Source: Halarcobacter sp.
Lineage (GTDB): Bacteria > Campylobacterota > Campylobacteria > Campylobacterales > Arcobacteraceae
Reading direction: 5' to 3'
DNA length: 64,000 nt
NCBI GenBank assembly: GCA_048571215.1
Contig: CP182352.1
Location: 3,136,001-3,200,000 of the forward strand
Both the position numbers and the translations under genes were made by a program. The notes beneath the pieces were generated by a model. That model was not told where the DNA came from. It saw only the letters and a program-made list of their open reading frames with translations, and ran no database searches. Position 1 is the first letter of the stretch. Each line of letters opens with the position of its first letter. Below, in pieces: positions 36,553-58,600 of this stretch.

Positions 36553-38475
36553 TTATTTATTTTTTGTAAAAGTTAGATTATTTAAAAAATCTTGTTCATT
36601 TATTAGGTTTAATATCCTTTTTTTTGAACTAATCTTTTCAACATATTGTTGCATAAAAATATATATATTAATAATCAATTTTTTTCCAAAAGGTAAAGAT
36701 AAAATTTTTCCTAGGTGTGGATGGATAAAAGAAGGCATATATTTTTGTAAAAGTTCATCTTCGACACTTAAAAAAGTTTTTACACTCCCTTTTTGACCTT
36801 GTCTTCCTGCTCGTCCAAATAGTTGTAAATCAACTCTTCTTGACTCATTTCTTTCAGTTACAATTACATGGAGCCCACCTAAGGAGTTACTATTATTTAA
36901 TAAGATTATATCTGTACCTCTACCTGCCATATTTGTAGCAATAGTTATGCTACCTTCTTCGCCTGCTTTTTCTATGATTTGAGCTTCTATTTCATGATTT
37001 AATGCATGTAAAACTGTACAGCTTAAACCTAAATTTTTAATTTTTCTTTCTAAAAGGTTTGCTTCTAAAATTGTTCTTGCTCCCACTAAAATTGGTCTTT
37101 TAAATGAGTGAATATATTCTATTTCTTTTGCAACTAAATCCCATTTTTCTTTTTTTGTAAAGGTGATTTCATCTTTATATATTTGAATTTGCTTTGAAAC
37201 TCTTAATGGGATTTTTACTATTGTTAAGTAATAAATCTGCCATAACTCTTTTTCAATATTTTGTAATGTACCACTCATTCCACAAATTCTTTTGTACAAT
37301 CTAAAAAACCTTTGAAAACTCATTTTGATATTTGTTTTTGTAGGTTTTGTAAGTGGAATTCCCTCTTTTGCTTCTACAGCTTGATGTAAACCACCACTCC
37401 AAGAACGACTATTCATAAGTCTTCCTGTTTTTTCATCAACTATTACAATTTTATCATCAACTATTACATACTGCTTGTTTAAATGGTAAAACTCTTTTGC
37501 TAAGATGGCTTGTTTCATAATATATTTTAATCTATAATCAACTCTCCAGGCTAAAGGGAAACTCTCTTTATATTTTTTTATTAAGTCAAATCCTGATTCA
37601 TTTATCTCCACACTATTGTATATTTTATTTATTTCATAATGTTCATTTATCTCTAATCTATCTAAAACTTTTTTTGCTTCTATAGAAGCATCTAAAAGCT
37701 CTTTATCTTCTGTTTGTATTGATATAATAAGAGGAGTTATAGCTTCATCAGCTAATACACTATCAGCTTCGTCAATGATAACTGTGTGTAAGGGTCTTAA
37801 TGTTCTTTGTACAGCTTTATCTTGTAGTTCGTACAATAATTCTTTAGAAGAGCCAAATTCATAATCTACTTTCATCTTATCTCTTAGGTAATCAGCTAAT
37901 ATATCATTGCTTGTTGCATATACTACATCTTTTTGGTAATGTAAAACTCTTTGTTCGTTTTCCATATCATTAGTGATATATCCAACCTCTACAAAGCACC
38001 TATTGTATAAAGGAGCTAGTAGTTGAGCATCTCTTGATGCTAAGTAATCATTTGAGGTTATTATATGGCAAGGTTCTCCCCTCCATGATAAAGCAATTGT
38101 AGCTATACATGCAGTGATTGTTTTACCTTCTCCTGTTGCCATCTCTATTATGTATCCATTATACATAGCAAGAGCACCCATTATTTGTACAGGGTAGGGT
38201 CTTTTTTGTATTTCTCTAAAGGAGGTCTCACTTATTAGGGCAAATGTTAATTTTAACTCCTCAAAGTTATCTTTTCTTAATAAAAATTTATCTTTTTGGT
38301 TTCTTAATTTTGATTCTAACTCTTCATCACTAACATCTTTAAATGTTAAAGATAGTGAATATATCTCTTGGGCCTGCTTTTTTATTTTTTTATAATTAAA
38401 AAATTTTCTTCTAAAAAAGCCTTTTATATTGTGAATGAATGAATCAGCATCTTTATATAATTTATTATTTTCCAT
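36553..38475 (-). CDS. Accessory SecA-like ATPase, C-terminally truncated (motor domains only)
   Basis: EMATGEGKT, TSNDYLASRD, IDEADS, GLHQAVEAKEG, ATNMAGRGTDI, ESRRVDLQLFGRAGRQG, FLSVEDEL; ends about 70 aa later, 640 aa. Confidence 0.9.
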   Translation of the reverse strand: MENNKLYKDADSFIHNIKGFFRRKFFNYKKIKKQAQEIYSLSLTFKDVSDEELESKLRNQKDKFLLRKDNFEELKLTFALISETSFREIQKRPYPVQIMGALAMYNGYIIEMATGEGKTITACIATIALSWRGEPCHIITSNDYLASRDAQLLAPLYNRCFVEVGYITNDMENEQRVLHYQKDVVYATSNDILADYLRDKMKVDYEFGSSKELLYELQDKAVQRTLRPLHTVIIDEADSVLADEAITPLIISIQTEDKELLDASIEAKKVLDRLEINEHYEINKIYNSVEINESGFDLIKKYKESFPLAWRVDYRLKYIMKQAILAKEFYHLNKQYVIVDDKIVIVDEKTGRLMNSRSWSGGLHQAVEAKEGIPLTKPTKTNIKMSFQRFFRLYKRICGMSGTLQNIEKELWQIYYLTIVKIPLRVSKQIQIYKDEITFTKKEKWDLVAKEIEYIHSFKRPILVGARTILEANLLERKIKNLGLSCTVLHALNHEIEAQIIEKAGEEGSITIATNMAGRGTDIILLNNSNSLGGLHVIVTERNESRRVDLQLFGRAGRQGQKGSVKTFLSVEDELLQKYMPSFIHPHLGKILSLPFGKKLIINIYIFMQQYVEKISSKKRILNLINEQDFLNNLTFTKNK

Positions 38476-40628
38476 TACAATTGATATCTTTTTTGTAATA
38501 ATTGTCTAACAAATTTAACAGTTTGCGCAAATATGGTTTTTGGAGTTGTTTCTATTCTTAAGACTCCTGACCTATCTTCATATAATAGAGGATTCTTTTT
38601 ATCTCTTTTTATTTTTGCAATAACTTTAAAAAATGATTCTTTTGACTTTGTTCCTTTTTCATCATTTTCTAATATAGGAATATCTCCTCCTCCTCTAAAT
38701 CCTAGAACAGCAGAAGGAAGAGTATTTTGCTCATGGGGAATAACAGTTAAGTTTTCAACACTTATAGTTTTTGCTGCAATTCCTGTAAGTTTTATTTCAG
38801 ATGTAAAAAGCTCTGAGTTAAAAAGTTCAGATGCTTTTTCTTGAGGTACTGCTGCAATAAATTGTGCATTGTCATTATCAATAATTTTCCCGATATATTC
38901 TCTTCTTTTAATAATCCTATTTTTTAGTTTTTCAATATTATTACTAACAAATAAACCATCTTTTGGGGCTTTTATTATTAGGTTTTCTTTTTTCTCTTTT
39001 AAAAATTTTAATTTTTCGTCAAGCAATACTAATCTTTTTTCTATTGGTTTTAGATTGGCTATATTTTCTTGAGATGCTTTTAGTCTTAAAGCTTTTGTTT
39101 CAATTATCATAGCCCTTGTTCGCTCTAAGTCAAAATTTAGTGATTCGTTTTCTAGTTTTAGAATCAAGTCCCCTTTTTTAACTTTTTTAACATTATCTAT
39201 GTATATTTCAGTAACTAAACCATCACTAAAAGAGTATATATTAAGTAAACTAATTGGTTGTACTATTCCACTTGCTCTTATAGAATCTTTTATTGGTATA
39301 AACCCAATTAAAATTATTAAACTCAATGTAAAAAGTAAAGAGATTGTTACTGCATTAAATCTTTTTCCTCTCAATTCATTATCATGCAGTAGATACTTTA
39401 TAAAAGAATAAAGGGGCTTTATTATCCATATAAAAATTGATATTGATATAACAATTAGACCAAATAAAAACCATTGATCTGCAACAAATATAGCAATTAA
39501 AATCGCAACCATAAATTTATATATTAAACTTAAAATAGCATATAATGCTAGCCAAAAACTCTCTTTTTTGGAGTTAGTTGGGGGATATATATCTTTTAAT
39601 TTAAACAAATATTTTTTAACCCAAAAGAAACATTGTTCTCTTGCTCTTTGATAAAGATTTGGTATTTCTAATAAATCAGATAATATATAATAAGAATCGA
39701 ATTTCAATAGGGGATTACCATTAAAAACTAAACTTGAGACGGAACCTATAATCATTATATTAAATGCTATTGAATTTAAAGCACCTTCTCCTGTATTTAC
39801 CCAGATGATTACACAAATAAAAGCTATAAAAAGCTCAACCATCATCCCAGCAGCACCAACTAATGCTCTTTTATATTTATTTGTAAAAGCCCAGCTACTA
39901 CTTGCATCCATAAAGGGTAGGGGAGTAAATACTATAAACATAAGACCCACTGTTGTTACATTGCCTCCAAACTTTTTGACCATCATTACATGGCCTAATT
40001 CATGAAATACTTTTAATATCACTAAAGAAATATATAAAAATACGATATTATCAGCTGCAAGTACCCCTTGGGTTTGGTCAAAAAAACTATCAAAATTTTC
40101 TGCAATCAATTTTAAAGCATATATGAAAAAAACAAGCCAAATAAGTAAAAGAGTTTTACTGAAAAAAACATCAATAAATGGTTTAATTCTTATTAGCCAA
40201 TCATTAGGATTCCATAAAGGGATTTTAATAAATAAAAAACTAGCTAGTTTACCTCTAATCTCTTTATTTTTATTTTTAACAATTCTGTCAAACATATTTT
40301 CACTATCTGCTCTATGTTTAAAATATAAAAGGTTATTGCCATGTAGTTGAGATAATAAGTTTACTATTTCATCTTGTGTAGGAGCGATGTCAGGATTTGT
40401 TTTAATATATTCCTCCCATATATCTTCAACTGTTTTTTTTGTAGTTAATTTTGATAAAAACTTATAAGCTTCGGGAGTAACTTTAAAGAATTTATTACTG
40501 TACTTATCATTTAAAACATACCATGTCGTTCCTCTATAATATTGCTTATGTATGTTTATACTATAAAGTAAAGATACTTTTAATTCAGAGACAACATGCC
40601 ATGATTCACTATAAAGAGTTTCCTTCAT
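38475..40628 (-). CDS. PqqD-like domain + M50 (site-2) metalloprotease + membrane fusion (HlyD-like) domain
   Basis: HELGH, GAAGMMVEL, FNGNPLLKFDSYYIL; C-terminal lipoyl halves (VKKGDLILKL, IKAPKDG) around a coiled coil. Confidence 0.85.
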   Translation of the reverse strand: MKETLYSESWHVVSELKVSLLYSINIHKQYYRGTTWYVLNDKYSNKFFKVTPEAYKFLSKLTTKKTVEDIWEEYIKTNPDIAPTQDEIVNLLSQLHGNNLLYFKHRADSENMFDRIVKNKNKEIRGKLASFLFIKIPLWNPNDWLIRIKPFIDVFFSKTLLLIWLVFFIYALKLIAENFDSFFDQTQGVLAADNIVFLYISLVILKVFHELGHVMMVKKFGGNVTTVGLMFIVFTPLPFMDASSSWAFTNKYKRALVGAAGMMVELFIAFICVIIWVNTGEGALNSIAFNIMIIGSVSSLVFNGNPLLKFDSYYILSDLLEIPNLYQRAREQCFFWVKKYLFKLKDIYPPTNSKKESFWLALYAILSLIYKFMVAILIAIFVADQWFLFGLIVISISIFIWIIKPLYSFIKYLLHDNELRGKRFNAVTISLLFTLSLIILIGFIPIKDSIRASGIVQPISLLNIYSFSDGLVTEIYIDNVKKVKKGDLILKLENESLNFDLERTRAMIIETKALRLKASQENIANLKPIEKRLVLLDEKLKFLKEKKENLIIKAPKDGLFVSNNIEKLKNRIIKRREYIGKIIDNDNAQFIAAVPQEKASELFNSELFTSEIKLTGIAAKTISVENLTVIPHEQNTLPSAVLGFRGGGDIPILENDEKGTKSKESFFKVIAKIKRDKKNPLLYEDRSGVLRIETTPKTIFAQTVKFVRQLLQKRYQL

Positions 40629-40631
40629 ATA

Positions 40632-42515
40632 CTACAACCAAAAATACATTCTAAGAAAATCAATTGTTTTATGGGTAGCTATCCAAATAACCCTTCTTTG
40701 TCCTATATTTATTTTAGCTACACCACTCATCCCTGGTCTCCACCAAGACTCAATAGGAGATAATGTTTTTGCTTTTAACATAAATACATTTCCATTTTTA
40801 CCATCTACTTGTGCAGTTGGAACAATATTTGTAACTTTTATAGGGAAATATAACTCTGGTCTACTTAATAGTTTTAGTTCACCCTCATCATTTATCTTAA
40901 TTTCATCAATATATTTTTCACTGATTTTAAATCTAATAAAGATATCTTTTGCATTTGCAATTTTAAGTAAAATATCTCCTTTTGAAACAGGTGCAGAAAT
41001 TAACTCTTTTTTATCACCTTCAATAATAACTCCATCAAATGGTGATTTTATTTTTGATTGATTTAAATAGTATTCAACTTTTTTTAAAGATGCTTTAGCT
41101 TGAATAACCTTTGCTATTGCTATATTCATATCTGCTAACTCATCTCTTGCTCTTGCTTTTTCTGCCTCTCTTGTATATCTAATTACATCTGCTTCCATTT
41201 CAAGTTGTTTTAATAATAACTCTTCTTCATCTAATTCAATTAAAGTTTCATCTTTTTTTATATAATCACCAGGATAATAATTAACATTTTTTATATAACT
41301 ATCATATGGAGCTTGTACATAGGCTATGTTATCAGTATCTAAAGTAGCAGTTACTTCTATCTTATATTCCCATTTGAAAAATATAGAATAAAGTAATACT
41401 AAAGAGATAAGAATACTAAAAAACTTCAATAATGTGTTATCGCTTCCTAAGAAATTTGCTAATTGTTTTTTTGTCCCATCTAATAGTTTTTTCCCAATCC
41501 ATCTATCTTCTTGTTGTAAATCATATAACCAAATATTTAATTGTTCTAAAGACAATTCTAGTAGAATAATATCTTTTTTATCAAAACTATCATCTAATTT
41601 TTCAAGGGTAACTACACCTATAACTTTATCTTCAATTTTTATAGGTATAGATAAAATAGTATTTAAAAGATTTATACGAGAGTAGTCCTCATGGGCTTTT
41701 GTTACTAAATTCGTATTATCAGTAGGTAAGTAGACAGTTTTTTCTTGATCTGCACACTCTTCATATACATTTTGTAATTTTTTAACTATTTCACTTTTCT
41801 CGTCAAATTTTTCTAAGTGGGATATAGCAATTAAGTTTATGTATTCATTTGTTTTCCAACCAATACTCACCCTAGAACTGTCAAATTTTAATGAAAGTTC
41901 ATTTACTAGCTTCATACATGCTAAGAGAAATTTCTTTTCATCTTTTATTAAGTTTAGTAATTCTAGTATCTCATAAATTCTATTATTTAATAAAGGGGTT
42001 TTCTCTTGAGTTTCTATGGGTAAATTTGTAGTTGATGACTTTCTATTAAAATATGCATAGTTTAAATAAACATCATTTATAAGTTGAGTTCTAACTACAG
42101 TTTCATTAAACTGCTGTGTATTTGCTCTGTCAATTATTATTGATGCGATAATAATTGTATTATCTAAATTTTCGATTTTAAAAGACAAGATGTATGCTTG
42201 TGAAAATTTATTTATTTTCAAATTAATAGGGGCATAAGAATATGAGTTTTTTAATGTTTTATCTCTATTCAATAAGATGGTTTTTGCAATCTCTTCAGAA
42301 CTATCATCTACTCCAATATTATCAATCAAATACTTTTGTTTATAATTCTCTTCAAATAGTTCTAAAACTAAGATATAAGAAGATTTAGTAACTTGTAATG
42401 TATTTTCTAAATAGAAATTCCAAAACTCTTCTTTTGTGCCCTCAAATTCTCTTAATGCTTTTATATTATTTAATACAACTAATACATCTGTACTATTAGA
42501 TACAATATTACTCAT
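40632..42515 (-). CDS. GAF domain + HlyD-family membrane fusion protein
   Basis: GAF-like SRVSIGW...ILSIPI...IGVVTLE; one TM; VQAPYDSYI, IKSPFDGVI, WRPGMSGVAKI. Confidence 0.85.
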   Translation of the reverse strand: MSNIVSNSTDVLVVLNNIKALREFEGTKEEFWNFYLENTLQVTKSSYILVLELFEENYKQKYLIDNIGVDDSSEEIAKTILLNRDKTLKNSYSYAPINLKINKFSQAYILSFKIENLDNTIIIASIIIDRANTQQFNETVVRTQLINDVYLNYAYFNRKSSTTNLPIETQEKTPLLNNRIYEILELLNLIKDEKKFLLACMKLVNELSLKFDSSRVSIGWKTNEYINLIAISHLEKFDEKSEIVKKLQNVYEECADQEKTVYLPTDNTNLVTKAHEDYSRINLLNTILSIPIKIEDKVIGVVTLEKLDDSFDKKDIILLELSLEQLNIWLYDLQQEDRWIGKKLLDGTKKQLANFLGSDNTLLKFFSILISLVLLYSIFFKWEYKIEVTATLDTDNIAYVQAPYDSYIKNVNYYPGDYIKKDETLIELDEEELLLKQLEMEADVIRYTREAEKARARDELADMNIAIAKVIQAKASLKKVEYYLNQSKIKSPFDGVIIEGDKKELISAPVSKGDILLKIANAKDIFIRFKISEKYIDEIKINDEGELKLLSRPELYFPIKVTNIVPTAQVDGKNGNVFMLKAKTLSPIESWWRPGMSGVAKINIGQRRVIWIATHKTIDFLRMYFWL

Positions 42516-42521
42516 ATATAA

Positions 42522-43412
42522 TTACTTTTTTTCTATAGAATTAGTATCATCTAAAGGTTCCAATGATTCTAAAGTATAAGATATCTCAGAATTATTAATC
42601 TCTTTTCCTTTTTTATCAAAATATATAAAAGCTGATAAACCTGGAACAATTGATAAATCTTTATTTTCTAATTTTGCTTTTATTCTTACAAGTGAACTTG
42701 ACTTATCTGCAATTGGAGAGATAAATACAATTTTACTATTTTTATCAATTAATTTTTCACCATTTTTTATCTTAATTGCTAAGGATTTCCCAAGGGTGAG
42801 TTCTTGTGCATATTTTTGTTCGATATTAAATTCTACAAAACATTCTTTGTAATTAACTACTTCAACTATTGATTCACCACTTTTAACCCATTCCCCTATA
42901 TCAAAACGAATTTTTGTAATTACACCATCTATTGGGGAAGTTAGTTTATGACTTTCCAGAATATTTTTTGACATTTCATAGTCTATTCTTTCTATAAGCT
43001 TTTTTTGTTTTGTAGCAAGCATTTGACCTAATAGGTCATGGTATCTAATCTCTAAAGACATCAACTCATCTTTACTTACTGATTTACTTCTTTTATAAAT
43101 CTCTTTTGTTGAATCTAACATCTCTTTTAATAATCGTTCATTCTTTTTTAATGAATTATATTGAGATGAATCTCTATAAATCATTTTCTTTCTTTTTGTG
43201 TCTAGCATTTGTAAAGAATCATCTAATGTTAAAATCTCTTGGTTTTTTTTAACACTATTGCCCTCTTTTAAAAATATATTTAATATCTTTCCATCTATTG
43301 GAAGAGTGAGTTCTAAATGATGTTTTGGTAAAACTATACCTGTTACTTCCAATGCTAGAAGACTTGATGAGTATAAACATAAAGCTATTATAAAATTAAA
43401 AACTATTTTCAT
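42522..43412 (-). CDS. RND-type periplasmic adaptor (MFP)
   Basis: Signal peptide, PIDGKI..EGNSVKK, LTSPIDGVI..GEWV, FISPIAD, IVPGLS. Confidence 0.88.
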   Translation of the reverse strand: MKIVFNFIIALCLYSSSLLALEVTGIVLPKHHLELTLPIDGKILNIFLKEGNSVKKNQEILTLDDSLQMLDTKRKKMIYRDSSQYNSLKKNERLLKEMLDSTKEIYKRSKSVSKDELMSLEIRYHDLLGQMLATKQKKLIERIDYEMSKNILESHKLTSPIDGVITKIRFDIGEWVKSGESIVEVVNYKECFVEFNIEQKYAQELTLGKSLAIKIKNGEKLIDKNSKIVFISPIADKSSSLVRIKAKLENKDLSIVPGLSAFIYFDKKGKEINNSEISYTLESLEPLDDTNSIEKK

Positions 43413-45032
43413 CTAGTAGCCTTTTTTAAAATCAGTTACATTTGACATTGAGTCTATATAAACTTTATTTTCTAAGTTACTAAGATCAATATTAATATTA
43501 TATGTTTTTAGTAAAGTTCCCATTGCTTTTTGTAGAGTGGCTTCTGCTGTTTTCCATTCAATTACTCTTTCATACATTTTTCTTTCATAGTCAATATACT
43601 GCTCTTCCTCTTCTAATAATTTTTTAACATTTGTTTTACCAAAAAGTAATTTTTCATTTTCAATATCTAAAAGTTCTTTTTTTATCCTTAAACCTTTTTT
43701 AAATAAATCCATTTGTTTTCTTGTACTTTTTAGTTTTTCAATTCTAGCATGTAAACTATTGTCTAAATTCTTTTCTAAAGCATTTAATTCAAGGGTTCCT
43801 TTTAGTACATTTAATTTAGAATTTTCTATATAACTTTTCATCTTTTCATTTCCAAAAATTGGTGTTGAAAACTCTAATCCAACATTCCAACTTTGATATT
43901 CACTTGAATCTAATTCTTGAAGTGCTTTGCTTTGGGTTGTTCCTAAAGATTGATTTGTAATATCTGCTTTTATTTTCAAGTCAGGTAGTATTTGATTATC
44001 AAGATATTTTCTAGTTACTATCTCTAATTGTAATTTCTTTTTTGCAATATTATATTCAGACCAATTTTTCAATGCTTGTTGTAGACTATCTTCTAAGGTT
44101 GGTATTTCACTTTGATTATAAATATCTTCTGTTAGTTTAAATTTAAGATTAGGGTTTTTTGATGCAGAAATATTTAATAGAGTAAATATTTGACTTCTTT
44201 TTTCTAATAGTTTATCTTCCTCTTCAATCTTTTGAAGTTGAAGTAAATATAATCTATTTTCAATATCTAAAACTTCTGTTTCAGGTACCTTTCCATTTGA
44301 TGCCAAGTCTTTTATATTTTTTAAATTTTTCTTAGTAATTTTTATAAGATTATCCCAACTTTCTAAAGTTTTTTTCATACCATAAAATTGCCAGTAACTT
44401 TGAATAGTAACACCTACTAACTCAGTTAATATTTTGTTGTATTCATCTTCACTTATATTTTTATTTATTTGTGCTAGCTTATGTTTTATTGTTGTGATTT
44501 CATAACCTGCGTTTTTTAGTAGGGGTTGCTCAATAGATAGTTTCAGATAATCTCTATATTCTGTATCTAAAGGGGAATATTGTTTTCTTATTACATTACT
44601 TTCTAAATTATTTCTTATAAATTTAAATTCCCATGTTCCACCAGTTGGCATAAGTCCGCTAAAACCTGCTTCATAATTTTCAGTTCTAGATTCATAAACT
44701 CCACCTGAAGTCAATAAAGTACTATAATAAGAGTCTTCAGGACCTGTTCTAGTTTTTTGTTTTGAAAAAGTTATCCCTACAGAATATGTGGGTTCAAAGA
44801 TTTTTTCCTCTGATATTAATTCATTCTCTTTTGTCTTAACGTTTATCAGCTCAACAAGACCTTTTGAATTTTTTCTTACTACTTCTTGCACTAAACTATT
44901 TAAGCTCAGTTCAATAACATCATTCTTTAAAACTAGAGTTTCCTCTTTTTTTGAAAGAGTATTTTCTAGTTTTTGTGCATTTAAGATACTTACACTAATT
45001 ATAATCCCAAGTAAAAGTTTATTTAATACCAT
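43413..45032 (-). CDS. TolC-family outer membrane channel
   Basis: Signal peptide, IEQPLLKNAG, SYWQ, LPDLKI, WNVGLEFSTPIFG, LQKAMGTLL; helical repeats. Confidence 0.85.
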   Translation of the reverse strand: MVLNKLLLGIIISVSILNAQKLENTLSKKEETLVLKNDVIELSLNSLVQEVVRKNSKGLVELINVKTKENELISEEKIFEPTYSVGITFSKQKTRTGPEDSYYSTLLTSGGVYESRTENYEAGFSGLMPTGGTWEFKFIRNNLESNVIRKQYSPLDTEYRDYLKLSIEQPLLKNAGYEITTIKHKLAQINKNISEDEYNKILTELVGVTIQSYWQFYGMKKTLESWDNLIKITKKNLKNIKDLASNGKVPETEVLDIENRLYLLQLQKIEEEDKLLEKRSQIFTLLNISASKNPNLKFKLTEDIYNQSEIPTLEDSLQQALKNWSEYNIAKKKLQLEIVTRKYLDNQILPDLKIKADITNQSLGTTQSKALQELDSSEYQSWNVGLEFSTPIFGNEKMKSYIENSKLNVLKGTLELNALEKNLDNSLHARIEKLKSTRKQMDLFKKGLRIKKELLDIENEKLLFGKTNVKKLLEEEEQYIDYERKMYERVIEWKTAEATLQKAMGTLLKTYNINIDLSNLENKVYIDSMSNVTDFKKGY

Positions 45033-45036
45033 TATT

Positions 45037-46596
45037 TTATTTTACACCTTGTTTATTTAAAGTATAAGTTCCTGTACATTTATTTAATGTATCTTTCCAA
45101 TCACCAGTAATTTGATTGTTTGATATTGTCCCCACAGACCATGTTGTATTATTTGTTGTGATATTATCTTTAAATGTAATTTTACTATCTACTACACTTA
45201 AGTTTGTACCATATGTTTGATTATTTGATTGAGCTTGCCATGAAGCAGTGTATTCATCTGATGTACTTAATGTCATTGTCGTTACTGCTTGAGTACAAGT
45301 ACTAGTTAAGTTTCCACTCCATACACCCACTAAACTTGCAGGATATAAGGCATTAGTTTTTATAGGTTCTGTTTTTGTTTTTATTGTATATGTTGTTGTA
45401 TTTTCTATTGTGTTATCATTTACATCAGAATTAAATGGAACAGCTGTAGTTGCTCCTTTTATAGTTACTTCACCATCTATATCTCCATAAAGAGGAGTAT
45501 TCATAGCAAAAGTTCCATTAAGTAGATTCAAATTATAACCGTTATTTGCTTTTGATAATTCAATTACTCCACTAACACTATTCTTTTTAGCTAAATTGCT
45601 AGTTTGGGTATGTTCTTGAAGATAATTGGCACTTAAAAGAGTAGATACATTATTTGCTATTTTAAAGATAACTGTACCAATATATTTTGCATTTAGTGTT
45701 GAAGAACTAACTGTTTCTTCAAAAACTGCAGTTACAATATCTCCTTTTTTTATGTAGCTAATGGTTTTTTTAATTCCATTGGCATCTACAATTACTTCAC
45801 TAGTGTTATTATAACTATCCATTATTTGAAAAGCAATTTTTGTATCAATTATTGGGCTTATACCTAAGATACTATCTAGTAGATTACCACTAATTAAAGA
45901 TGTTTTCAATTTACTTAATTCTGCAACATTATCTGGAAGAGTATATATATATTTACTATTGTCTGCTGAATTTATATTATTTGTATTTTTTGTTGAAATA
46001 GTTCCAGAAACAGTATTTGATAAGCCATCACTTTGATTATCTAATATCCAACTTTGAAATATAAGAGTTTCATCTTTTGATGTTGTTCCTAAAATATTTT
46101 GAACATTAGCATCGTTAAAAATTGCTAATGTATTATCTTCAACTTCTAGTTTCTCTAAATAGTTTTTAAAACTAGTAGGTGAAATATTCTTTTTATATGT
46201 TTTACCAACAATAGCTGTATCATCTGTATTTCCACTAACTTCTATATTTAAAAACATTGAAAAGTTTAACAGACCTGTATTATCAGTTGTAGTATCTTCT
46301 GTTTGTAAAGCAGTACTTCCTTCAGCTATTAATATATACTCAATTCCAGGTTTAAGAATATATGATATTTCATATTTACCATTTGCATCAGTGATATCAT
46401 AAGGTTCACCTTCATCATATACGCCATCATTATCTATATCCAAAAAGACTCTAACATTTTTAATTGGTCCATCAGAAACGATACCAGAAACTGTACTTAA
46501 GCTAGTTGTGACTCCACCGCCGCCACCGCCGCCACATCCAGTAAATAAAACTGTTGCACCTAATAAAACTTTTGCTAATAATAAACTTTTTCTCAT
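45037..46596 (-). CDS. Lipoprotein (likely surface/outer membrane) of the secretion cluster
   Basis: Start re-assigned to ATG at 46596 (AAGGAA SD); MRKSLLL...LFTGC lipobox + poly-Gly; GIVSDGPIKNVRVFLDIDNDGVYDEGEP. Confidence 0.8.
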   Translation of the reverse strand: MRKSLLLAKVLLGATVLFTGCGGGGGGGVTTSLSTVSGIVSDGPIKNVRVFLDIDNDGVYDEGEPYDITDANGKYEISYILKPGIEYILIAEGSTALQTEDTTTDNTGLLNFSMFLNIEVSGNTDDTAIVGKTYKKNISPTSFKNYLEKLEVEDNTLAIFNDANVQNILGTTSKDETLIFQSWILDNQSDGLSNTVSGTISTKNTNNINSADNSKYIYTLPDNVAELSKLKTSLISGNLLDSILGISPIIDTKIAFQIMDSYNNTSEVIVDANGIKKTISYIKKGDIVTAVFEETVSSSTLNAKYIGTVIFKIANNVSTLLSANYLQEHTQTSNLAKKNSVSGVIELSKANNGYNLNLLNGTFAMNTPLYGDIDGEVTIKGATTAVPFNSDVNDNTIENTTTYTIKTKTEPIKTNALYPASLVGVWSGNLTSTCTQAVTTMTLSTSDEYTASWQAQSNNQTYGTNLSVVDSKITFKDNITTNNTTWSVGTISNNQITGDWKDTLNKCTGTYTLNKQGVK

Positions 46597-46606
46597 AATC
46601 TTTTCC

Positions 46607-49600
46607 TTATAACGCGATATCTTCAATCCAATATTCAAATAACTCACTGTCAATTCTGTCTATAATTAAATTCTCATTAAAATTACTTGTATAGTTTGAA
46701 TAATTCAATGATATTGGATTTAATACATCAGTAATTGATGTTTGTACTGTTTGAGTATTTACAACATTACTTGTATGATTTACATATGTTGGATTATTTA
46801 TTGATTCAAACAATGAGGTTACTCTTGTTTGGATATTCTCTTGTGCTTGCACATGATGTGTTTTCATTACATATGACGAGTTTAATAACTCATAATCTAT
46901 CTCTTTTGCGAAACTCCATTGCTCTACAGCACTATAACTATTAGTTAGATCCATAGTTGTTTCTATTTGACTTAACTTAGGAGTTACTATTGTTTTATTT
47001 ACAACTTGTAAAGAATAGTTGTCTTTTTCTACTAAAAATACAGATGTTGAAGAACCTATTTTTGAGTCTATTTTAGCTTCTTGTTTATTTGCAATAAATA
47101 AATTTCTTACATCTGTATTTATTGCATTATTTGACAAGTTATTTAAGCTTGTACTATTTAATAGATACTCACCTTTTGTGAAGGCACCTTTACCTACCAT
47201 ATTTAAATTTTGAGCTGTTATATTCGTATTTTGATTATTATAATAATCAGTGATTCTACCATCTTGTGTTTTTAAAGTTACTGTATTCGCACTAATAGTA
47301 CCTATTTTCATACTATCTTGAGTTTGTATAGTTACATTACTTGATGTTTGTACATCTTCTACTACTAAGTAATCCAATTCATTAATACTTACATCACCAC
47401 TAGCAATTGCTTTTAATACTGCTATATCTGTATCTAACGAAGCTGTAGTTACATCTAAGCTTAGTTTATCAGCAACTAATGTGGTATTATTAGTAATATT
47501 ATTTGCACTAATTGTTACATTCCCATCAGTTGTCATACTATCTAGAATTAAATCATCACTTTCATTAATAGTTACATCACCACTTGCAGTTGCTGTTAAA
47601 GTAGATACTTTTGTATTAATATCTGCACTTGTTACATCTAAACTTAATAAACTACTTGACAATAAAGAAGTAGCTGTATTTGTTAGATTAGAAGCTGTTA
47701 TATCTACATTTCCTGATGTTGTAATACTATCTAGAATTAAATCATCACTTTCATTAATAGTTACATCACCACTTGCAGTTGCTGTTAAAGTAGATACTTT
47801 TGTATTAATATCTGCACTTGTTACATCTAAACTTAATAAACTACTTGACAATAAAGAAGTAGCTGTATTTGTTAGATTAGAAGCTGTTATATCTACATTT
47901 CCTGATGTTGTAATACTATCTAGAATTAAATCATCACTTTCATTAATAGTTACATCACCACTTGCAGTTGCTGTTAAAGTAGATACTTTTGTATTAATAT
48001 CTGCACTTGTTACATCTAAACTTAATAAACTACTTGACAATAAAGAAGTAGCTGTATTTGTTAGATTAGAAGCTGTTATATCTACATTTCCTGATGTTGT
48101 AATACTATCTAGAATTAAATCATCACTTTCATTAATAGTTACATCACCACTTGCAGTTGCTGTTAAAGTAGATACTTTTGTATTAATATCTGCACTTGTT
48201 ACATCTAAACTTAATAAACTACTTGACAATAAAGAAGTAGCTGTATTTGTTAGATTAGAAGCTGTTATATCTACATTTCCTGATGTTGTAATACTATCTA
48301 GAATTAAATCATCACTTTCATTAATAGTTACATCACCACTTGCAGTTGCTGTTAAAGTAGATACTTTTGTATTAATATCTGCACTTGTTACATCTAAACT
48401 TAATAAACTACTTGACAATAAAGAAGTAGCTGTATTTGTTAGATTAGAAGCTGTTATATCTACATTTCCTGATGTTGTAATACTATCTAGAATTAAATCA
48501 TCACTTTCATTAATAGTTACATCACCACTTGCAGTTGCTGTTAAAGTAGATACTTTTGTATTAATATCTGCACTTGTTACATCTAAACTTAATAAACTAC
48601 TTGACAATAAAGAAGTAGCTGTATTTGTTAGATTAGAAGCTGTTATATCTACATTTCCTGATGTTGTAATACTATCTAGAATTAAATCATCACTTTCATT
48701 AATAGTTACATCACCACTTGCAGTTGCTGTTAAAGTAGATACTTTTGTATTAATATCTGCACTTGTTACATCTAAACTTAATAAACTACTTGACAATAAA
48801 GAAGTAGCTGTATTTGTTAGATTAGAAGCTGTTATATCTACATTTCCTGATGTTGTAATACTATCTAGAATTAAATCATCACTTTCATTAATAGTTACAT
48901 CACCACTTGCAGTTGCTGTTAAAGTAGATACTTTTGTATTAATATCTGCACTTGTTACATCTAAACTTAATAAACTACTTGACAATAAAGAAGTAGCTGT
49001 ATTTGTTAGATTAGAAGCTGTTATATCTACATTTCCTGATGTTGTAATACTATCTAGAATTAAATCATCACTTTCATTAATAGTTACATCACCACTTGCA
49101 GTTGCTGTTAAAGTAGATACTTTTGTATTAATATCTGCACTTGTTACATCTAAACTTAATAAACTACTTGACAATAAAGAAGTAGCTGTATTTGTTAGAT
49201 TAGAAGCTGTTATATCTACATTTCCTGATGTTGTAATACTATCTAGAATTAAATCATCACTTTCATTAATAGTTACATCACCACTTGCAGTTGCTGTTAA
49301 AGTAGATACTTTTGTATTAATATCTGCACTTGTTACATCTAAACTTAATAAACTACTTGACAATAAAGAAGTAGCTGTATTTGTTAGATTAGAAGCTGTT
49401 ATATCTACATTTCCTGATGTTGTAATACTATCTAGAATTAAATCATCACTTTCTTGAATAAATATATCACCACTTGTTGTATTTGAAGCAGTAAGTGATG
49501 CTATTGTTGTATCTATATCTGCATCCCCATTTGCTCCTATACCTGTTGCTGCAACTAAACTAACTACTGTTGTAGTTCCTTTTATATTTGCATCTTCTGT

Positions 49601-52600
49601 ATCTAGGTTATCACTAATATTTCCATTTGTTGCTGTTATATTTACATTTGAGCTTGTATCTATTACTGATAGTGCTACATTTGTATTTGCTGTATATGTT
49701 ACAACTCCACTTGTACTTGTTGTATTTTTACCACTATTCATGATAATTGAACCAGCACTTGATACTACATCTATATTTCCAGCTACAGAACTAATAGCTC
49801 CATCTTGTGTGATATCTCCTAGGCTTGATACAATATTTACTACACCTAAGTTTGAACTTTGTGTTATTGCATCTATTGTTAAAGTATCTGTTTCTTTAAC
49901 ATATATATCTCCACTTGTTGCATTTGTGATATCTATATTTGATACTGTTGTATTAATATCATCTACACTTGTTCCAACCCCTGTATTAGAGTTTATTGTT
50001 AATACATCTGCTATTACATTTGCTGTTTCTGCACTTAGGTTATCACTAATATTTCCATTTGTTGCTGTTATATTTACATTTGAGCTTGTATCTATTACTG
50101 ATAGTGCTACATTTGTATTTGCTGTATATGTTACAACTCCATTTGTACTTGTTGTATTTTTACCACTATTCATGATAATTGAACCAGCACTTGATACTAC
50201 ATCTATATTTCCAGCTACAGAACTAATAGCTCCATCTTGTGTGATATCTCCTAGAGTTGATACAATATTTACTACACCTAAGTTTGAACTTTGTGTTATT
50301 GCATCTATTGTTAAAGTATCTGTTTCTTTAACATATATATCTCCACTTGTTGCATTTGTGATATCTATATTTGATACTGTTGTATTAATATCATCTACAC
50401 TTGTTCCAACCCCTGTATTAGAGTTTATTGTTAATACATCTGCTATTACATTTGCTGTTTCTGCACTTAGGTTATCACTAATATTTCCATTTGTTGCTGT
50501 TATATTTACATTTGAGCTTGTATCTATTACTGATAGTGCTACATTTGTATTTGCTGTATATGTTACAACTCCATTTGTACTTGTTGTATTTTTACCACTA
50601 TTCATGATAATTGAACCAGCACTTGATACTACATCTATATTTCCAGCTACAGAACTAATAGCTCCATCTTGTGTGATATCTCCTAGAGTTGATACAATAT
50701 TTACTACACCTAAGTTTGAACTTTGTGTTATTGCATCTATTGTTAAAGTATCTGTTTCTTTAACATATATATCTCCACTTGTTGCATTTGTGATATCTAT
50801 ATTTGATACTGTTGTATTAATATCATCTACACTTGTTCCAACCCCTGTATTAGAGTTTATTGTTAATACATCTGCTATTACATTTGCTGTTTCTGCACTT
50901 AGGTTATCACTAATATTTCCATTTGTTGCTGTTATATTTACATTTGAGCTTGTATCTATTACTGATAGTGCTACATTTGTATTTGCTGTATATGTTACAA
51001 CTCCATTTGTACTTGTTGTATTTTTACCACTATTCATGATAATTGAACCAGCACTTGATACTACATCTATATTTCCAGCTACAGAACTAATAGCTCCATC
51101 TTGTGTGATATCTCCTAGAGTTGATACAATATTTACTACACCTAAGTTTGAACTTTGTGTTATTGCATCTATTGTTAAAGTATCTGTTTCTTTAACATAT
51201 ATATCTCCACTTGTTGCATTTGTGATATCTATATTTGATACTGTTGTATTAATATCATCTACACTTGTTCCAACCCCTGTATTAGAGTTTATTGTTAATA
51301 CATCTGCTATTACATTTGCTGTTTCTGCACTTAGGTTATCACTAATATTTCCATTTGTTGCTGTTATATTTACATTTGAGCTTGTATCTATTACTGATAG
51401 TGCTACATTTGTATTTGCTGTATATGTTACAACTCCATTTGTACTTGTTGTATTTTTACCACTATTCATGATAATTGAACCAGCACTTGATACTACATCT
51501 ATATTTCCAGCTACAGAACTAATAGCTCCATCTTGTGTGATATCTCCTAGAGTTGATACAATATTTACTACACCTAAGTTTGAACTTTGTGTTATTGCAT
51601 CTATTGTTAAAGTATCTGTTTCTTTAACATATATATCTCCACTTGTTGCATTTGTGATATCTATATTTGATACTGTTGTATTAAGGTTATTTGCTTGTGT
51701 TCCTATACCGTTTGTTGCATCTAATATTAGCTTATCAGAAATAATACTTACACTATTATCTGCTCTATCTAAAATAGAACCATTTGCAATTAATGAAACT
51801 GTTCCTGTTGAGTTTATACTATCTTGTGCATCATCTGTTCTTGCTGTTGTTAATCCATTTGTTCCAACTTTATTAACACTTATTGCTTCAACATTATCTA
51901 TTAAGATATCTTTACTATTATCTAAATATAAACCATTTTTATTTACAACAGCACTTAATACATTTATAGAAGTTTCAATATTTTGTGTATTTGCTCCTAC
52001 TACTCCTGCTCCACTTAAATAAACTCTTAATTTATTTGCTGTTATATCTGTATTTGTATCACCTGAGTCACTAAATACTCCTGTTAGGAATAATGAAACA
52101 TTTGCAGTTCCTGCGTTTAATGATGAGATAGAGAAATCTTTTGCTTTTACTCTAATATTTGAATCACTTGTACTTACTTGTGAAGCATCACTCATAATCA
52201 CATTTCCTGCTGTACTAAAAATATCTATAGTTTTATTTGCAGTTTGAGTAGTTACATTGTCATTTATATTTATATTAGCACTTGCATCTAAAGTGATATT
52301 CCCACCGGTACTTAGTATTTGTGCATTTGAAGTGATATTAGTAGCAGATTTTACAAGAATATTTCCACTAGCTTCTATATTTCCTGTTATATCTAAGGTT
52401 GTTATTACACCACTTGCTTGTAATACTAAATTACCTAATGATGAAAGTTTTGTTTGTAGGGCATCTATTGTATTACTTGTAGATGCATCTGTACCTATTG
52501 TAGTAACAGTTATAGCTGATGTTTGACCTATATTTACAGCATTTGCTTCTTTAACAAATACATCTCCAGAAACATTCGCACTTAAAGTTGCAAGATCTGT

Positions 52601-55600
52601 TTTTAAATTACTTGCATTTGTACCTAAGGTGCTTGCAGTTATTTTTAATTCATCTGCTTTTACATTATTAAATGGTGCAGTTGATATTAAATTATTTGTA
52701 ATAGTTGTTGCAAGTAAACTAACATCACTAGTAGTTACAATTTGTCCTAAGCTTAATGTTGTTGTTGAAGCATATCTTACATTTGCAGCTGTTGCATCTG
52801 TTTTTGAAGTACTTGCCATTGATATAGCATTTGCTTGTACATCCACTGTTCCTACGGTTGTGATATTCGCATTTTGCGCAAATGTCCCACCTGTGATTAT
52901 TGATAAAGCACCTGATGTTGAACTTAAGGCACTACTTAATGTTATATTATCTGCTTTTAATAGTGTATCGCCATTTGAAGAAACTGTAGCATTAGAAGTT
53001 ACATCTATATCTCCACTTGCACTTACTAAAATTAATTTATCTGTTGATACTAAATTCTCTTGGGCACTATTTGCTGTAGCTGTTATACTTCCATCACTAT
53101 TCACCCCATTTACATCTACACTTACAGAGTCTATTGATAAACCATCACTTTCACTTACAAACAATCCAGCACCTTTAGCACTTAAAGTTGTAACTGTTGT
53201 CTCTATGTGATTTGTTGCTGTTCCTATAAAACCTGTTATATCTAACAATAAGCTTGATGCTTGAATATCCACATCACTATTTGTTGTATCTATTGCATCT
53301 GTATCTACTAAATTACCAAGTGCTGTAATTGATACACTTCCTGTTCCTGCATTGATACTCTCAATATTTACATCATTTCCTGCATCTAATAAAATATTTC
53401 CACTATTTGTTGTAGCTATTTGTGTACCATCTGCCATTGTAATATCATTTAATGCTATTACTTGAATTGTTTTTGTTGCAGTTGATGCTATGATATTTGC
53501 ATTTACTAATACATCATTATCTGAAACTATTGAAATGTTTCCATTATTTGAAGTTACTATTCCATTTAATGTTATATCAAAGGCTTCATCATTAGCTACA
53601 TCTTCTGTTGTTAATAGAATATTATTATTTGCTGTTATTGTTCCTGCTGTTATTGCTCCATTTATTGTTGAAACTACTGCATTACCTGTTGTTCCTAAAG
53701 CACTAAGTGAAGTTATACTTAAATCATCACTTTCTTGAATAAATATATCACCACTTGTTGTATTTGAAGCAGTAAGTGATGCTATTGTTGTATCTATATC
53801 TGCATCCCCACTTGCTCCTATACCTGTTGCTGCAACTAAACTAACTACTGTTGTAGTTCCTTTTATATTTGCATCTTCTGTATCTAGGTTATCACTAATA
53901 TTTCCATTTGTTGCTGTTATATTTACATTTGAGCTTGTATCTATTACTGATAGTGCTACATTTGTATTTGCTGTATATGTTACAACTCCACTTGTACTTG
54001 TTGTATTTTTACCACTATTCATGATAATTGAACCAGCACTTGATACTACATCTATATTTCCAGCTACAGAACTAATAGCTCCATCTTGTGTGATATCTCC
54101 TAGGCTTGATACAATATTTACTACACCTAAGTTTGAACTTTGTGTTATTGCATCTATTGTTAAAGTATCTGTTTCTTTAACATATATATCTCCACTTGTT
54201 GCATTTGTGATATCTATATTTGATACTGTTGTATTAATATCATCTACACTTGTTCCAACCCCTGTATTAGAGTTTATTGTTAATACATCTGCTATTACAT
54301 TTGCTGTTTCTGCACTTAGGTTATCACTTATATATCCATTTGTTGCACTTAAGTTTACATTTGCTGTTGTTGAAACCAACGATAGTTTTATATTATTAGC
54401 TGCATTTAGGGTTATATCATCTTGAGCTATTATGTTTTTACCATCAGTTATAGTAATAGAACCTGTTGTTGAAGTTATTGCTACTTCCCCACTTGAAGAT
54501 ATATTACTTTGAAGTGCATCTTCTGTATTTGTAGTACTTGCATCTGTATTTATTGTTGTAACACTTATTGCTGATGTTTCATTTATAGTAAGATTACCTG
54601 CTTGTGTTATAAATAAACTTCCACCATTTGAGCTTAATGTTGAAATATCTGTTTCAATGTAATCTAAAGTAGTTGCTGTTGAACCACTAACAGTTAATTT
54701 TAATTCATCTGCTGTGATATTATTTGTATTAGCATTTGCATCACTAATTGAACTTGCAAGTAAACTAACATCACTAGTAGTTACAATTTGTCCTAAGCTT
54801 AATGTTGTTGTTGAAGCATATCTTACATTTGCAGCTGTTGCATCTGTTTTTGAAGTACTTGCCATTGATATAGCATTTGCTTGTACATCCACTGTTCCTA
54901 CGGTTGTGATATTCGCATTTTGCGCAAATGTCCCACCTGTGATTATTGATAAAGCACCTGATGTTGAACTTAAGGCACTACTTAATGTTATATTATCTGC
55001 TTTTAATAGTGTATCGCCATTTGAAGAAACTGTAGCATTAGAAGTTACATCTATATCTCCACTTGCACTTACTAAAATTAATTTATCTGTTGATACTAAA
55101 TTCTCTTGGGCACTATTTGCTGTAGCTGTTATACTTCCATCACTATTCACCCCATTTACATCTACACTTACAGAGTCTATTGATAAACCATCACTTTCAC
55201 TTACAAACAATCCAGCACCTTTAGCACTTAAAGTTGTAACTGTTGTCTCTATGTGATTTGTTGCTGTTCCTATAAAACCTGTTATATCTAACAATAAGCT
55301 TGATGCTTGAATATCCACATCACTATTTGTTGTATCTATTGCATCTGTATCTACTAAATTACCAAGTGCTGTAATTGATACACTTCCTGTTCCTGCATTG
55401 ATACTCTCAATATTTACATCATTTCCTGCATCTAATAAAATATTTCCACTATTTGTTGTAGCTATTTGTGTACCATCTGCCATTGTAATATCATTTAATG
55501 CTATTACTTGAATTGTTTTTGTTGCAGTTGATGCTATGATATTTGCATTTACTAATACATCATTATCTGAAACTATTGAAATGTTTCCATTATTTGAAGT

Positions 55601-58600
55601 TACTATTCCATTTAATGTTATATCAAAGGCTTCATCATTAGCTACATCTTCTGTTGTTAATAGAATATTATTATTTGCTGTTATTGTTCCTGCTGTTATT
55701 GCTCCATTTATTGTTGAAACTACTGCATTACCTGTTGTTCCTAAAGCACTAAGTGAAGTTATACTTAAATCATCACTTTCTTGAATAAATATATCACCAC
55801 TTGTTGTATTTGAAGCAGTAAGTGATGCTATTGTTGTATCTATATCTGCATCCCCACTTGCTCCTATACCTGTTGCTGCAACTAAACTAACTACTGTTGT
55901 AGTTCCTTTTATATTTGCATCTTCTGTATCTAGGTTATCACTAATATTTCCATTTGTTGCTGTTATATTTACATTTGAGCTTGTATCTATTACTGATAGT
56001 GCTACATTTGTATTTGCTGTATATGTTACAACTCCACTTGTACTTGTTGTATTTTTACCACTATTCATGATAATTGAACCAGCACTTGATACTACATCTA
56101 TATTTCCAGCTACAGAACTAATAGCTCCATCTTGTGTGATATCTCCTAGGCTTGATACAATATTTACTACACCTAAGTTTGAACTTTGTGTTATTGCATC
56201 TATTGTTAAAGTATCTGTTTCTTTAACATATATATCTCCACTTGTTGCATTTGTGATATCTATATTTGATACTGTTGTATTAATATCATCTACACTTGTT
56301 CCAACCCCTGTATTAGAGTTTATTGTTAATACATCTGCTATTACATTTGCTGTTTCTGCACTTAGGTTATCACTTATATATCCATTTGTTGCACTTAAGT
56401 TTACATTTGCTGTTGTTGAAACCAACGATAGTTTTATATTATTAGCTGCATTTAGGGTTATATCTGCACTATTAGAACTTTTTGTTAGGGTGTCATTATT
56501 CATAATGATTGAACCAGCAATTGAACTTAAAGTTATAGTTCCACTTGTTGAGTTAATATCTCCATCTTGTGTTATATCTCCTAGAGTTGCTACAACACTT
56601 ATATTACCTGCTAAGGTTTGTGTTATTGCATCTATTGTTAAAGTATCTGTTTCTTTAACATATATATCTCCACTTGTTGCATTTGTGATATCTATATTTG
56701 ATACTGTTGTATTAATATCATCTACACTTGTTCCAACCCCTGTATTAGAGTTTATTGTTAATACATCTGCTATTACATTTGCTGTTTCTGCACTTAGGTT
56801 ATCACTAATATTTCCACTTGTTGCACTTAGGTTTACATTTGCTGCTGTTGAAACTAATGATAATTTTATATTATCATTTGCAGTGTAATTTATAATACCA
56901 TTTGTAGATGAAGCACTTGTTGCATCAGCCATAACAATAGAATCATTATATGAAGTGATATTTATTGCCCCTGCTGCATATGTATGTGTTATATTTGCAT
57001 TTATATTTATATTTCCATCAGCTTTTAAATTAACATTCTCTCCCGCACTAGTAATCGTTTCATTTACATTAACTACTGTATCTATCCCTGTATCTTTTGC
57101 TTGGATAGTTAAGCTTCCACTTCCTGCATTACTAACCCCATTTTGTCCTGATGCTATTGTGATATTACCATTTTGAGTAGTTAAGCTTGTTGTTCCACCT
57201 GTTGCACTTTGAGATAATCTATTTACTACTATATCTCCTCCACTTGCTAGCTCATTTATTTTTATATTCCCTGTCCCTAAGTTTTGGGCATCTAATGTTG
57301 TAACTTTTGTAAACATTAAATCTATCCCTGTTTGTGAACTTACTGTAAGGGTATTTGAAACTAACTCTTCACTTGTTAATCCATCTGTAGAATCATTAAT
57401 TTGTGAAATCTTACCTGATTGTGAATATAAAGTTATATCACTTGACTGGGCTTCTATATAGTTTGAAATAGTTATATTATTTATTGCATCTAAAGTGATA
57501 TCTCCTGATGCTATTAATTTATTATATTCATTTGAATAATCTTCTATTTTTATACTTCCACCATATATCTCTACATTATCTTTAAACGTTAATTGATTTG
57601 ATGCTATTACACCTACTCTTACTTCTCCAACTGCTGTTGATTTTGTATGGTTATCTATATCTTTATGTCCAAATATTATTTTAGAGAAACCATCTGTTAG
57701 TGTCCCCATTTCTGTTGCTGTTATATTTAGAGTATTTGCTGTTGTTTCTAGTGGTGGTGATGAAATTGACATATCATAACTTGTATTTGTTGGTCTTAAT
57801 GTTAAGGTTCCTGCACCTGTACTTGTTATTGATTCTTCTCCACCTTTGAAGTTTATCTCATTACCTTCAATTAAAATATCTCCACCTGCAGAAACGCCAT
57901 CTTCAAACACTACTAAGTCTGCACCTATTATTGTTAGGTTTCCACTTAGTGTAAGTTGTTGATTAAAGGTTACTGTTCCTGTAGCATAAATATAAATATC
58001 TCCATCTACATTTACTTCCCCTTTAAAGGTAACATTTTCGGCACCTTCACTATTATCACTTGTATCTAAAATACTTAGACCTTCTAATTGGTCTGTGTAT
58101 CCCACTGTACTATTTACAACTATACTTCCACCATTTGCATTTAAGTTTAATGTATCTGTTGTTCCAGCATTACCATCTAATCTGTGAGTTGTTGATGCTC
58201 CTAGGGTAATATTACCTGTACCATCTGTTCCTGCTGTTATTGAGTCATTACTTGTAACTACAATTGAATCACTTATTAATACATCATCTGCCAATGATAT
58301 TGCTGTATCTGATCCACCTGATCCAAAGTTTAAGGTATGTCCTGATCCATATATACTTAATGATGTACCTTCCCCTCCTATGAGATTATCATAGATGTAC
58401 ATCTCTCCTCCTAGGTTTGGATTGTTGATTGTTAAAGATACATCAATATTTATATCTCCTTGTTCAGAAGATTTATCTCCTATCTCAATAATGCTTCCAC
58501 TATTTTCATCACCAATTACTAAACTATTAGCACTATCTTTTAGATTTTTTATTTGAGAAGAAGTAAGGTGTAGAGCATCTGATGATACACTTGTACTATC

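Follow-up and report, generated by a model that had tools for sequence, protein, structure and literature searches.

The window analysed here is a 64,000-nucleotide stretch of a Halarcobacter genome that consists of one contig (C1) and is 100% complete. Its minus strand, to which the coordinates of the cluster genes refer, carries in this order a 12,400-aa protein, SapC, a 4,092-aa protein, a lipoprotein-like protein, TolC, a plain adaptor (MFP), a GAF-MFP, an M50-MFP, a short SecA and a methylthioribose (MTR)-kinase-like protein. The short SecA-like ATPase (36553..38475) is a 640-aa protein composed of NBD1, the PPXD clamp, NBD2 and a scaffold-helix stub. Scans for promoters and terminators stayed at the level of chance (promoters 89 against 89.4, terminators 4 against 2.6).

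The adjoining M50-MFP (38475..40628; 717 aa) combines an RRE/PqqD-like domain, an M50 metalloprotease and a membrane-fusion domain (Pfam M50 and HlyD_D23) with seven hydrophobic segments, and it is a candidate for both the inner-membrane component and the leader peptidase. Its closest NCBIfam model is the daptide metalloprotease, with a score below the cut-off. The zinc ligands and the catalytic glutamate (H209, E210, H213 and D311) were found in all 67 full-length loci, and residues 1-130 are similar to clusters bearing PqqD (25-41% of members), with a score of 0.95. Upstream lie the GAF-MFP adaptor (40632..42515; 627 aa; Pfam GAF, HlyD_D23 and HlyD_3; one hydrophobic segment, at 362-380), the plain periplasmic adaptor (42522..43412; 296 aa) and a TolC-family outer-membrane channel (43413..45032; 539 aa; Pfam OEP). 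The SapC-family protein (59004..59759; 251 aa; Pfam SapC, E 1e-71) corresponds to cluster 4 of Kamneva et al.

Two other genes were rejected as core members. The lipoprotein-like ORF (45037..46653; 538 aa; no Pfam or NCBIfam match) has a homolog in 2 of 80 related loci, and the MTR-kinase-like gene is present in one of the 80. The latter belongs to two convergent MTR-kinase-like genes at window positions 34323-36542, both under the family cut-off; the minus-strand gene lies 10 bases after the short secA, an arrangement seen elsewhere only in locus L035. A 331-aa ORF before the kinase-like gene (window 33331-34326) has cysteine motifs at its C-terminal end and matches no family in Pfam or NCBIfam. 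It may encode a U32-peptidase-like protein.

The gene set resembles type I secretion in its MFP, its TolC, its giant cysteine-free cargo and a protease tied to the inner-membrane part. It differs in that type I systems have an ABC pump, whereas no ORF with an ABC motif was found in the 140 kb of C1:3.13-3.27 Mb (against 35 genome-wide), and also in its three adaptors and the N-terminal leader of its cargo. Peptidase-containing type I exporters use a C39 protease, whereas the protease of this cluster is M50.

Two giant proteins are the candidate cargo. Candidate cargo 1 (46607..58885) is a 4,092-aa repeat protein with the N-terminal leader LESRLLLSA, which scores 17.2 bits against the LEPR-XLL model (NF012209; cut-off 17). 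Candidate cargo 2, of which the 3' end occupies 59873..64000, is a 12,400-aa protein (C1:3195873-3233075) with the leader LEDRILLSA. The two share an N-terminal LE[SD]R[LI]LLSA and are the sole ORFs in the genome matching the leader pattern used. Both giants are free of cysteine, and no hydrophobic signal core was observed by inspection at their N-termini. Matches to the RTX-type GGxGxDxL number zero in the 4,092-aa protein and three anywhere along the 12,400-aa protein. The smaller giant shares ~90% identity with the final third of the larger one and ends identically, but has a leader of its own, and judged by sequence it is a shortened duplicate of the 12,400-aa cargo. At least seven further ORFs in the genome, of 2,500-7,300 aa, have adhesin- or RTX-like starts without the LEPR leader.

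The short SecA had been described in an earlier note on this DNA as a SecA paralog reduced to its motor domains, with all DEAD-motor motifs intact, an end about 70 aa past FLSVEDEL and a start overlapping the stop of the M50 gene. Each motif was located in the 640-aa ORF (GEGKT at 115, DEAD at 235, NMAGRGTD at 515, QLFGRAGRQG at 551 and FLSVEDEL at 568), 65 residues follow the last of these, and the ATG (38475-38473) overlaps the TAA stop of the M50-MFP gene by one base (TAATG). The Pfam domains found are SecA_DEAD, SecA_PP_bind and P-loop_SecA, with the preprotein cross-linking domain (PPXD, PF01043) retained at residues 266-368 (E 8e-23). There is no Pfam match in the protein to SecA_SW, which covers the wing, the IRA1/two-helix finger and the full scaffold; the SEC-C (zinc) tail is absent, and no transmembrane segment was found in a hydropathy scan. 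The description as reduced to motor domains is therefore correct for the wing, two-helix finger and tail, which are gone, but not for the PPXD and the scaffold stub, which are kept.

The separate full-length secA that the earlier note had suggested looking for was found at C1:1382234. This housekeeping SecA of 871 aa has wing/scaffold and SEC-C domains and is 38-40% identical to the short SecA. The two proteins share Walker A, DEAD, motifs V and VI, the PPXD and the first part of the scaffold helix, whereas the short protein (640 against 871 aa) lacks the wing, the IRA1/two-helix finger and SEC-C and reaches 499.9 bits in the housekeeping model NF009538, which has a cut-off of 814. Residues 1-30 of the short SecA form an N-terminal extension with no counterpart in the host SecA, and a 16-residue insertion after RDKMK (residues about 207-222) is also missing from the host protein; both are possible family-specific docking surfaces.

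A family profile built from 76 of the 120 best homologs aligns to residues 13-604 of B. subtilis SecA and stops at RKQLLQYDDVLR. The C-terminus of the short SecA corresponds to a position near residue 660 of E. coli SecA, within the scaffold helix, so that ~40 residues, or most of the long scaffold helix (E. coli 619-668), are retained. This conserved helix stub (36553..36684; residues 598-640, with Q609, R620, L624 and L634-x-F636) is equivalent to about 620-660 of E. coli SecA. Q609, R620 and L624, which are invariant across the 76 homologs, correspond to E. coli Q631, R642 and L646 in a numbering checked against N629 and F639 as named in PMC5456053. In 60 distant loci the stub is likewise conserved (Q 98%, R 97%, F 95%). 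We infer that the stub is a candidate docking element.

The earlier note had seen no secY at the locus, and the single secY of the whole genome lies elsewhere, at C1:2023884. No stand-alone wing/scaffold partner gene was found in the genome either, the sole SecA_SW match being the 871-aa secA; one SecA_SW match was observed in 79 of the 80 other genomes searched, and a second, partial one in G596. SecA2 proteins (SecA2/SecY2 and SecA2-only systems) are similar in being second SecA paralogs tied to special, often very large substrates. SecA2/SecY2 systems, however, have a second secY whereas this genome has one, and the short SecA stays below the cut-off of each NCBIfam SecA2 model (447/1085, 414/930, 365/725 and 357/1100 bits, score/cut-off), matching these models of 762-776 positions only to about 550.

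A common length among homologs, another check that the earlier note had suggested, was also found. Lengths of 630-680 aa occur in 115 of the 120 best homologs, the remaining five having 470, 597, 611, 614 and 830 aa. The tail after motif VI has 324 residues in the host SecA, but it measures only 75-92 aa in the 90 homologs that matched the search pattern (30 of the 120 did not), and its range in 57 complete loci is 69-92 aa. Compared with the closest fetched ortholog, in L035 (67% identical), the gene has a dN of 0.25 and a dS of 1.22, and its tail alone 0.34 and 0.78; the PPXD with its stem shows the same degree of conservation as the motor, at 67% identity and a dN/dS of about 0.2. In a FastTree tree of 44 rows, which did not include the sequences of Kamneva et al. 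2015, a long branch with support 100 separates five canonical SecAs from all other rows, and the short SecA falls together with short SecAs from Verrucomicrobiota, Planctomycetota, Chlorobiota and Pseudomonadota. It follows from this split that the gene did not arise by recent copying of the host secA. The homolog lengths and the tree support the short length as a conserved trait of a lineage separate from the host secA. That the gene is a pseudogene or a recent nonsense truncation of secA, for which nothing speaks except the short length, is ruled out by the homolog lengths. An end point shared across many phyla, the 38-40% identity to the host SecA and purifying selection also count against it, and we regard its probability as negligible.

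The genomic context of the family was studied in 80 related loci, the best 80 of at least 599 from an M50-MFP alignment search, many of which reach contig ends. In these loci, which come from many phyla, the short SecA lies directly downstream of the M50-MFP in 71, and GAF-MFP, MFP, TolC and SapC were found in 75, 59, 53 and 20, respectively. An ABC ORF is present in one of the 80, on the other strand. Six of the nine loci without a downstream short SecA end less than 100 bases from the M50-MFP. In L025 and L066 the short SecA is on another contig (658 and 666 aa), and the genome of L045 has an intact copy together with a dead partial copy elsewhere. The gene order supports the view that the short SecA travels with the M50-MFP/GAF-MFP/MFP/TolC cluster and not with a secY. 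Wherever they are covered, the ATPase motifs are intact in each of the 120 homologs. Of 71 loci of this first set, 68 keep them intact and three have them broken.

A sister cluster was found in three relatives (G002, G018 and G026) and in two genomes of the same order (G178 and G414). Their M50-MFPs are 25-27% identical to the one described here and retain HExxH; in a quick tree of 44 rows, a long branch with support 100 sets the five apart. The GAF-MFP is shorter where called (428-448 aa) and a giant protein is present, with a LEPR leader in four of the five and DUF4347 in the one that was scanned. No short SecA was found in any of the five, which have only canonical SecA genome-wide.

This difference was followed through 401 genomes of a further phylum sample, of which 81 carry an M50-MFP. 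Thirty-three were assigned to subtype A (best M50-MFP score above 420 bits) and 48 to subtype B (below 335 bits), although these score classes are imperfect, as a low-scoring M50-MFP in G443 adjoins an intact short SecA. Eighty of the 81 genomes were searched for SecA-like matches unpaired with SecA_SW, and G443 was examined separately. An extra match was found in 28 of 32 subtype-A genomes and in none of the 48 of subtype B. Two of the four subtype-A misses have a very divergent copy beside the M50-MFP, and in the other two (G673 and G819) none was found. Including G443, a short SecA-like gene is therefore present in 31 of 33 subtype-A genomes against 0 of 48 in subtype B, counts that are not independent as the genomes are kin, and that still more divergent copies could escape, one dead copy having only 16 bits in Pfam. 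A strong family match occurs in 27 of the 401 genomes, 26 of them subtype A and the other an 891-aa frame; an extra 245-aa frame in G561 looks like half of its split canonical secA. No SecA-like ORF was found in the 21 subtype-B loci that were read (16 of them from the survey), and a loose Pfam search of seven subtype-B genomes gave only canonical SecA and short helicase-like matches while recovering the dead copy in the control G493. The GAF-MFP also differs in length, with about 600-640 aa in subtype A against 428-511 in subtype B.

As observations on their own, subtype B is the sole M50-MFP type in 48 of the 401 genomes, and the sister cluster occurs without a short SecA or a linked ABC pump in L020-L023, L018-L019, L113-L116 and L155-L170. 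Dead but open copies were seen beside the M50-MFP in L151, L152, L171, L172 and L118.

Five dead short-SecA copies were characterised (G493, G457, G445, G465 and G443). In all of them xAD replaces DEAD and no motif V or VI can be aligned, and the three that can be aligned at the Walker A position lack this motif. Open frames of 527-675 codons are seen in four copies, whereas one is cut by a contig end (471). The copies are 24-48% identical to each other over aligned parts and sit on long branches of the SecA tree. An intact short SecA was not found in G445, G493 or G457. The predicted model of one dead copy superposes on that of a 654-aa short-SecA cluster with a TM of 0.80 over 579 residues; in this prediction the whole short-SecA fold is kept. 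The tail profile scores -4.3 to 2.9 bits on the dead copies (shuffle maximum 1.4), which is only suggestive of tail retention. The M50-MFP of two dead-copy loci retains 22 of 33 and 23 of 33 conserved positions in residues 1-130, against 34 of 35 and 29 of 35 in the adaptor part. The dead copies may represent slow decay.

Kamneva, Poudel and Ward (2015; PMC4452313) described secondary SecA_DEAD proteins without SecA_SW, encoded beside M50/HlyD, GAF/HlyD, HlyD, OEP and SapC genes. They noted the missing ABC pump and proposed a co-opted ATPase with M50 as the pore; the co-opted-ATPase idea for the short SecA was thus published in 2015. The present locus shares with theirs a SecA_DEAD protein lacking SecA_SW, the four neighbour families including SapC, and the absence of an ABC pump. 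The accessible parts of that account, in contrast, name no LEPR giants as cargo, no RRE-like domain, no SecA-less sister subtype and no dead copies, and its S2 Table, which includes Methylobacterium extorquens AM1 and Ruegeria pomeroyi DSS-3, has no Campylobacterota member, whereas this locus is from Halarcobacter.

In the available text of a preprint (10.64898/2026.03.19.712371), Chlorobium chlorochromatii is reported to make, export and transfer to a partner cell two LEPRxLL giants whose genes lie next to sapC and tolC; a single secA of recent acquisition, Cag_1676, is named in the same text. The accessible Kamneva supplements (PMC4452313) contain, for that strain, a second SecA as well as members of the cluster, and from the gi-number spacing from SapC we infer that Cag_1676 and Cag_1507 fit as these entries. 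Omnitrophota giants (bioRxiv 10.1101/2023.11.21.568195, in its available part) share a SecA DEAD and preprotein-binding domain without wing/scaffold, for which giant-protein export has been proposed, but there the SecA-like part is a domain inside the giant, whereas here it is a separate gene in an adaptor/TolC cluster. No characterised system or experimental study of this machine was found in the literature searched, which covered few subscription journals.

Fragments of E. coli SecA cut at an equivalent place allow a comparison for the truncated architecture. Fragments N649-N668 are rated +++ for ATPase and 0 for pOmpA translocation with liposomes, SecYEG or membranes (PMC5456053, Table 1). 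With SecYEG they nevertheless show channel activity, and C-terminal fragments rescue them in trans (PMC5456053). Loss of IRA1 raises SecA ATPase, the finger enters SecY and the PPXD forms the clamp, according to the accessible text of PMC3101351.

We propose that the short SecA handles the cargo on the cytoplasmic side, as a subunit of a TolC-linked exporter that has no ABC pump and serves giant LEPR-leader proteins, and that it works without SecYEG. The RRE/PqqD-like domain of the M50-MFP would bind the N-terminal LEPR leader, which the M50 zinc site would cut or gate. The membrane helices of the M50-MFP and GAF-MFP would then form the inner-membrane passage, with the three adaptors connecting it to TolC. 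The PPXD/NBD2 clamp of the short SecA may hold the unfolded chain while its scaffold-helix stub docks it on the cytoplasmic face of the exporter complex, and ATP cycles would grip and release the chain, feeding it in and preventing backsliding or premature folding. Lacking the two-helix finger, the protein could not push as SecA does in SecY, and the basic driving force probably comes from elsewhere, be it the proton motive force or the folding of the exported chain on the outside; this would explain both the SecA-less sister subtype and the catalytically dead copies. The comparison of clusters with a dead copy or none suggests that the short SecA feeds the giants and is not their only power source. 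That it is an ATP-cycling cargo clamp on a non-Sec exporter, and probably not the indispensable motor of it, is a proposal that could with equal chance prove right or wrong, while a role in this exporter independent of SecYEG is very probable. The 'dedicated ATPase' of the earlier note stands in so far as a conserved short lineage is linked to the cluster and not to a secY; it is weakened in that subtype B has none and some copies are dead, from which it follows that a dedicated ATPase is not required across the family.

The conservation of the motifs in the great majority of subtype-A copies fits an essential motor equally well as a clamp that feeds cargo. In such a scheme, put forward in the earlier note and by Kamneva et al. 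2015, the short SecA would supply ABC-like energy and push the chain through the M50-MFP channel, while a cytoplasmic domain of the M50-MFP or GAF-MFP would take the part of the finger in trans. The short SecA is the only ATPase in the cluster, its gene overlaps that of the M50-MFP by one base, its motifs are unbroken in 68 of 71 loci and, as far as covered, in all 120 homologs, and the longer GAF-MFP of subtype A could carry an extra docking domain; in the available text of PMC5456053, C-terminal SecA fragments restore E. coli translocation in trans. Subtype B, however, has the same set of adaptors, protease, TolC and LEPR cargo without the short SecA, though it may use another motor, and within subtype A two of the 33 genomes have no copy and in three the sole copy found is dead. 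We consider an obligatory motor rather unlikely.

The E. coli fragments also bear on a SecA2-like accessory role, in which the short SecA would deliver the giant or machine subunits to SecYEG, alone or as a heterodimer with SecA, leaving only the outer step to the adaptors and TolC. The short SecA ends in the region (E. coli 643-668) in which fragments retain an interaction with SecYEG, as seen in channel assays, and can be rescued by C-terminal fragments in trans, a point that also weighs against the cargo-feeding role, but equivalent fragments give 0% translocation in the data available from that study (PMC5456053). The tree of Kamneva et al., as accessible, places the clade beside actinobacterial SecA2 (PMC4452313), whereas the short SecA falls below every SecA2 cut-off, has no two-helix finger to enter SecY and has cargo whose N-termini, by inspection, lack a hydrophobic signal core. 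In favour of delivery to SecYEG, the Chlorobium giants are reported in the periplasm of axenic cells in the available text of 10.64898/2026.03.19.712371, and this periplasmic pool, together with the C-terminus-first export proposed there, likewise speaks against cargo feeding as we describe it. Delivery to SecYEG nevertheless appears improbable. The dead copies, which keep fold and frame, point in another direction, towards a regulatory or assembly subunit acting as a nucleotide-gated plug or as a checkpoint that licenses leader cleavage or channel assembly without contacting the chain. The lower conservation of M50-MFP residues 1-130 relative to the adaptor part in two dead-copy loci is in line with this, but such co-variation rests on only these two loci, and a PPXD and stem conserved like the motor point to polypeptide binding. 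There is little likelihood of a purely regulatory role.

Returning to the clamp on a non-Sec exporter, the finger-less SecA may have been moved off SecY to become a modular add-on of a separate, widespread, envelope-spanning secretion class, an active motor in most of subtype A, a dead scaffold in some and absent from B, a generalisation to which we give slightly less than even odds. With the same reserve, the M50-adaptor fusion may be the inner-membrane translocase of this class, its cargo being N-terminally tagged and reaching 12,000 residues and more.

This cluster is the best candidate for the route by which the largest bacterial proteins exit the cell; the available text of the Chlorobium preprint on giant transfer names no inner-membrane motor (10.64898/2026.03.19.712371). 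The locus type has been in print since 2015, and new in relation to the accessible parts of that account are the subtype A/B distribution of the short SecA and the dead open copies. The present member adds a complete genome and two clear cargo genes, and its value lies in a testable series of active, dead and absent states and not in a first discovery. A SecA that lacks the finger by nature is relevant to the long-standing argument over power stroke versus ratchet, for which the family provides all three states. If the modular add-on is real, the clamp of SecA is able to act on a channel outside the Sec system, and the family would be a natural series for separating pushing from ratcheting.
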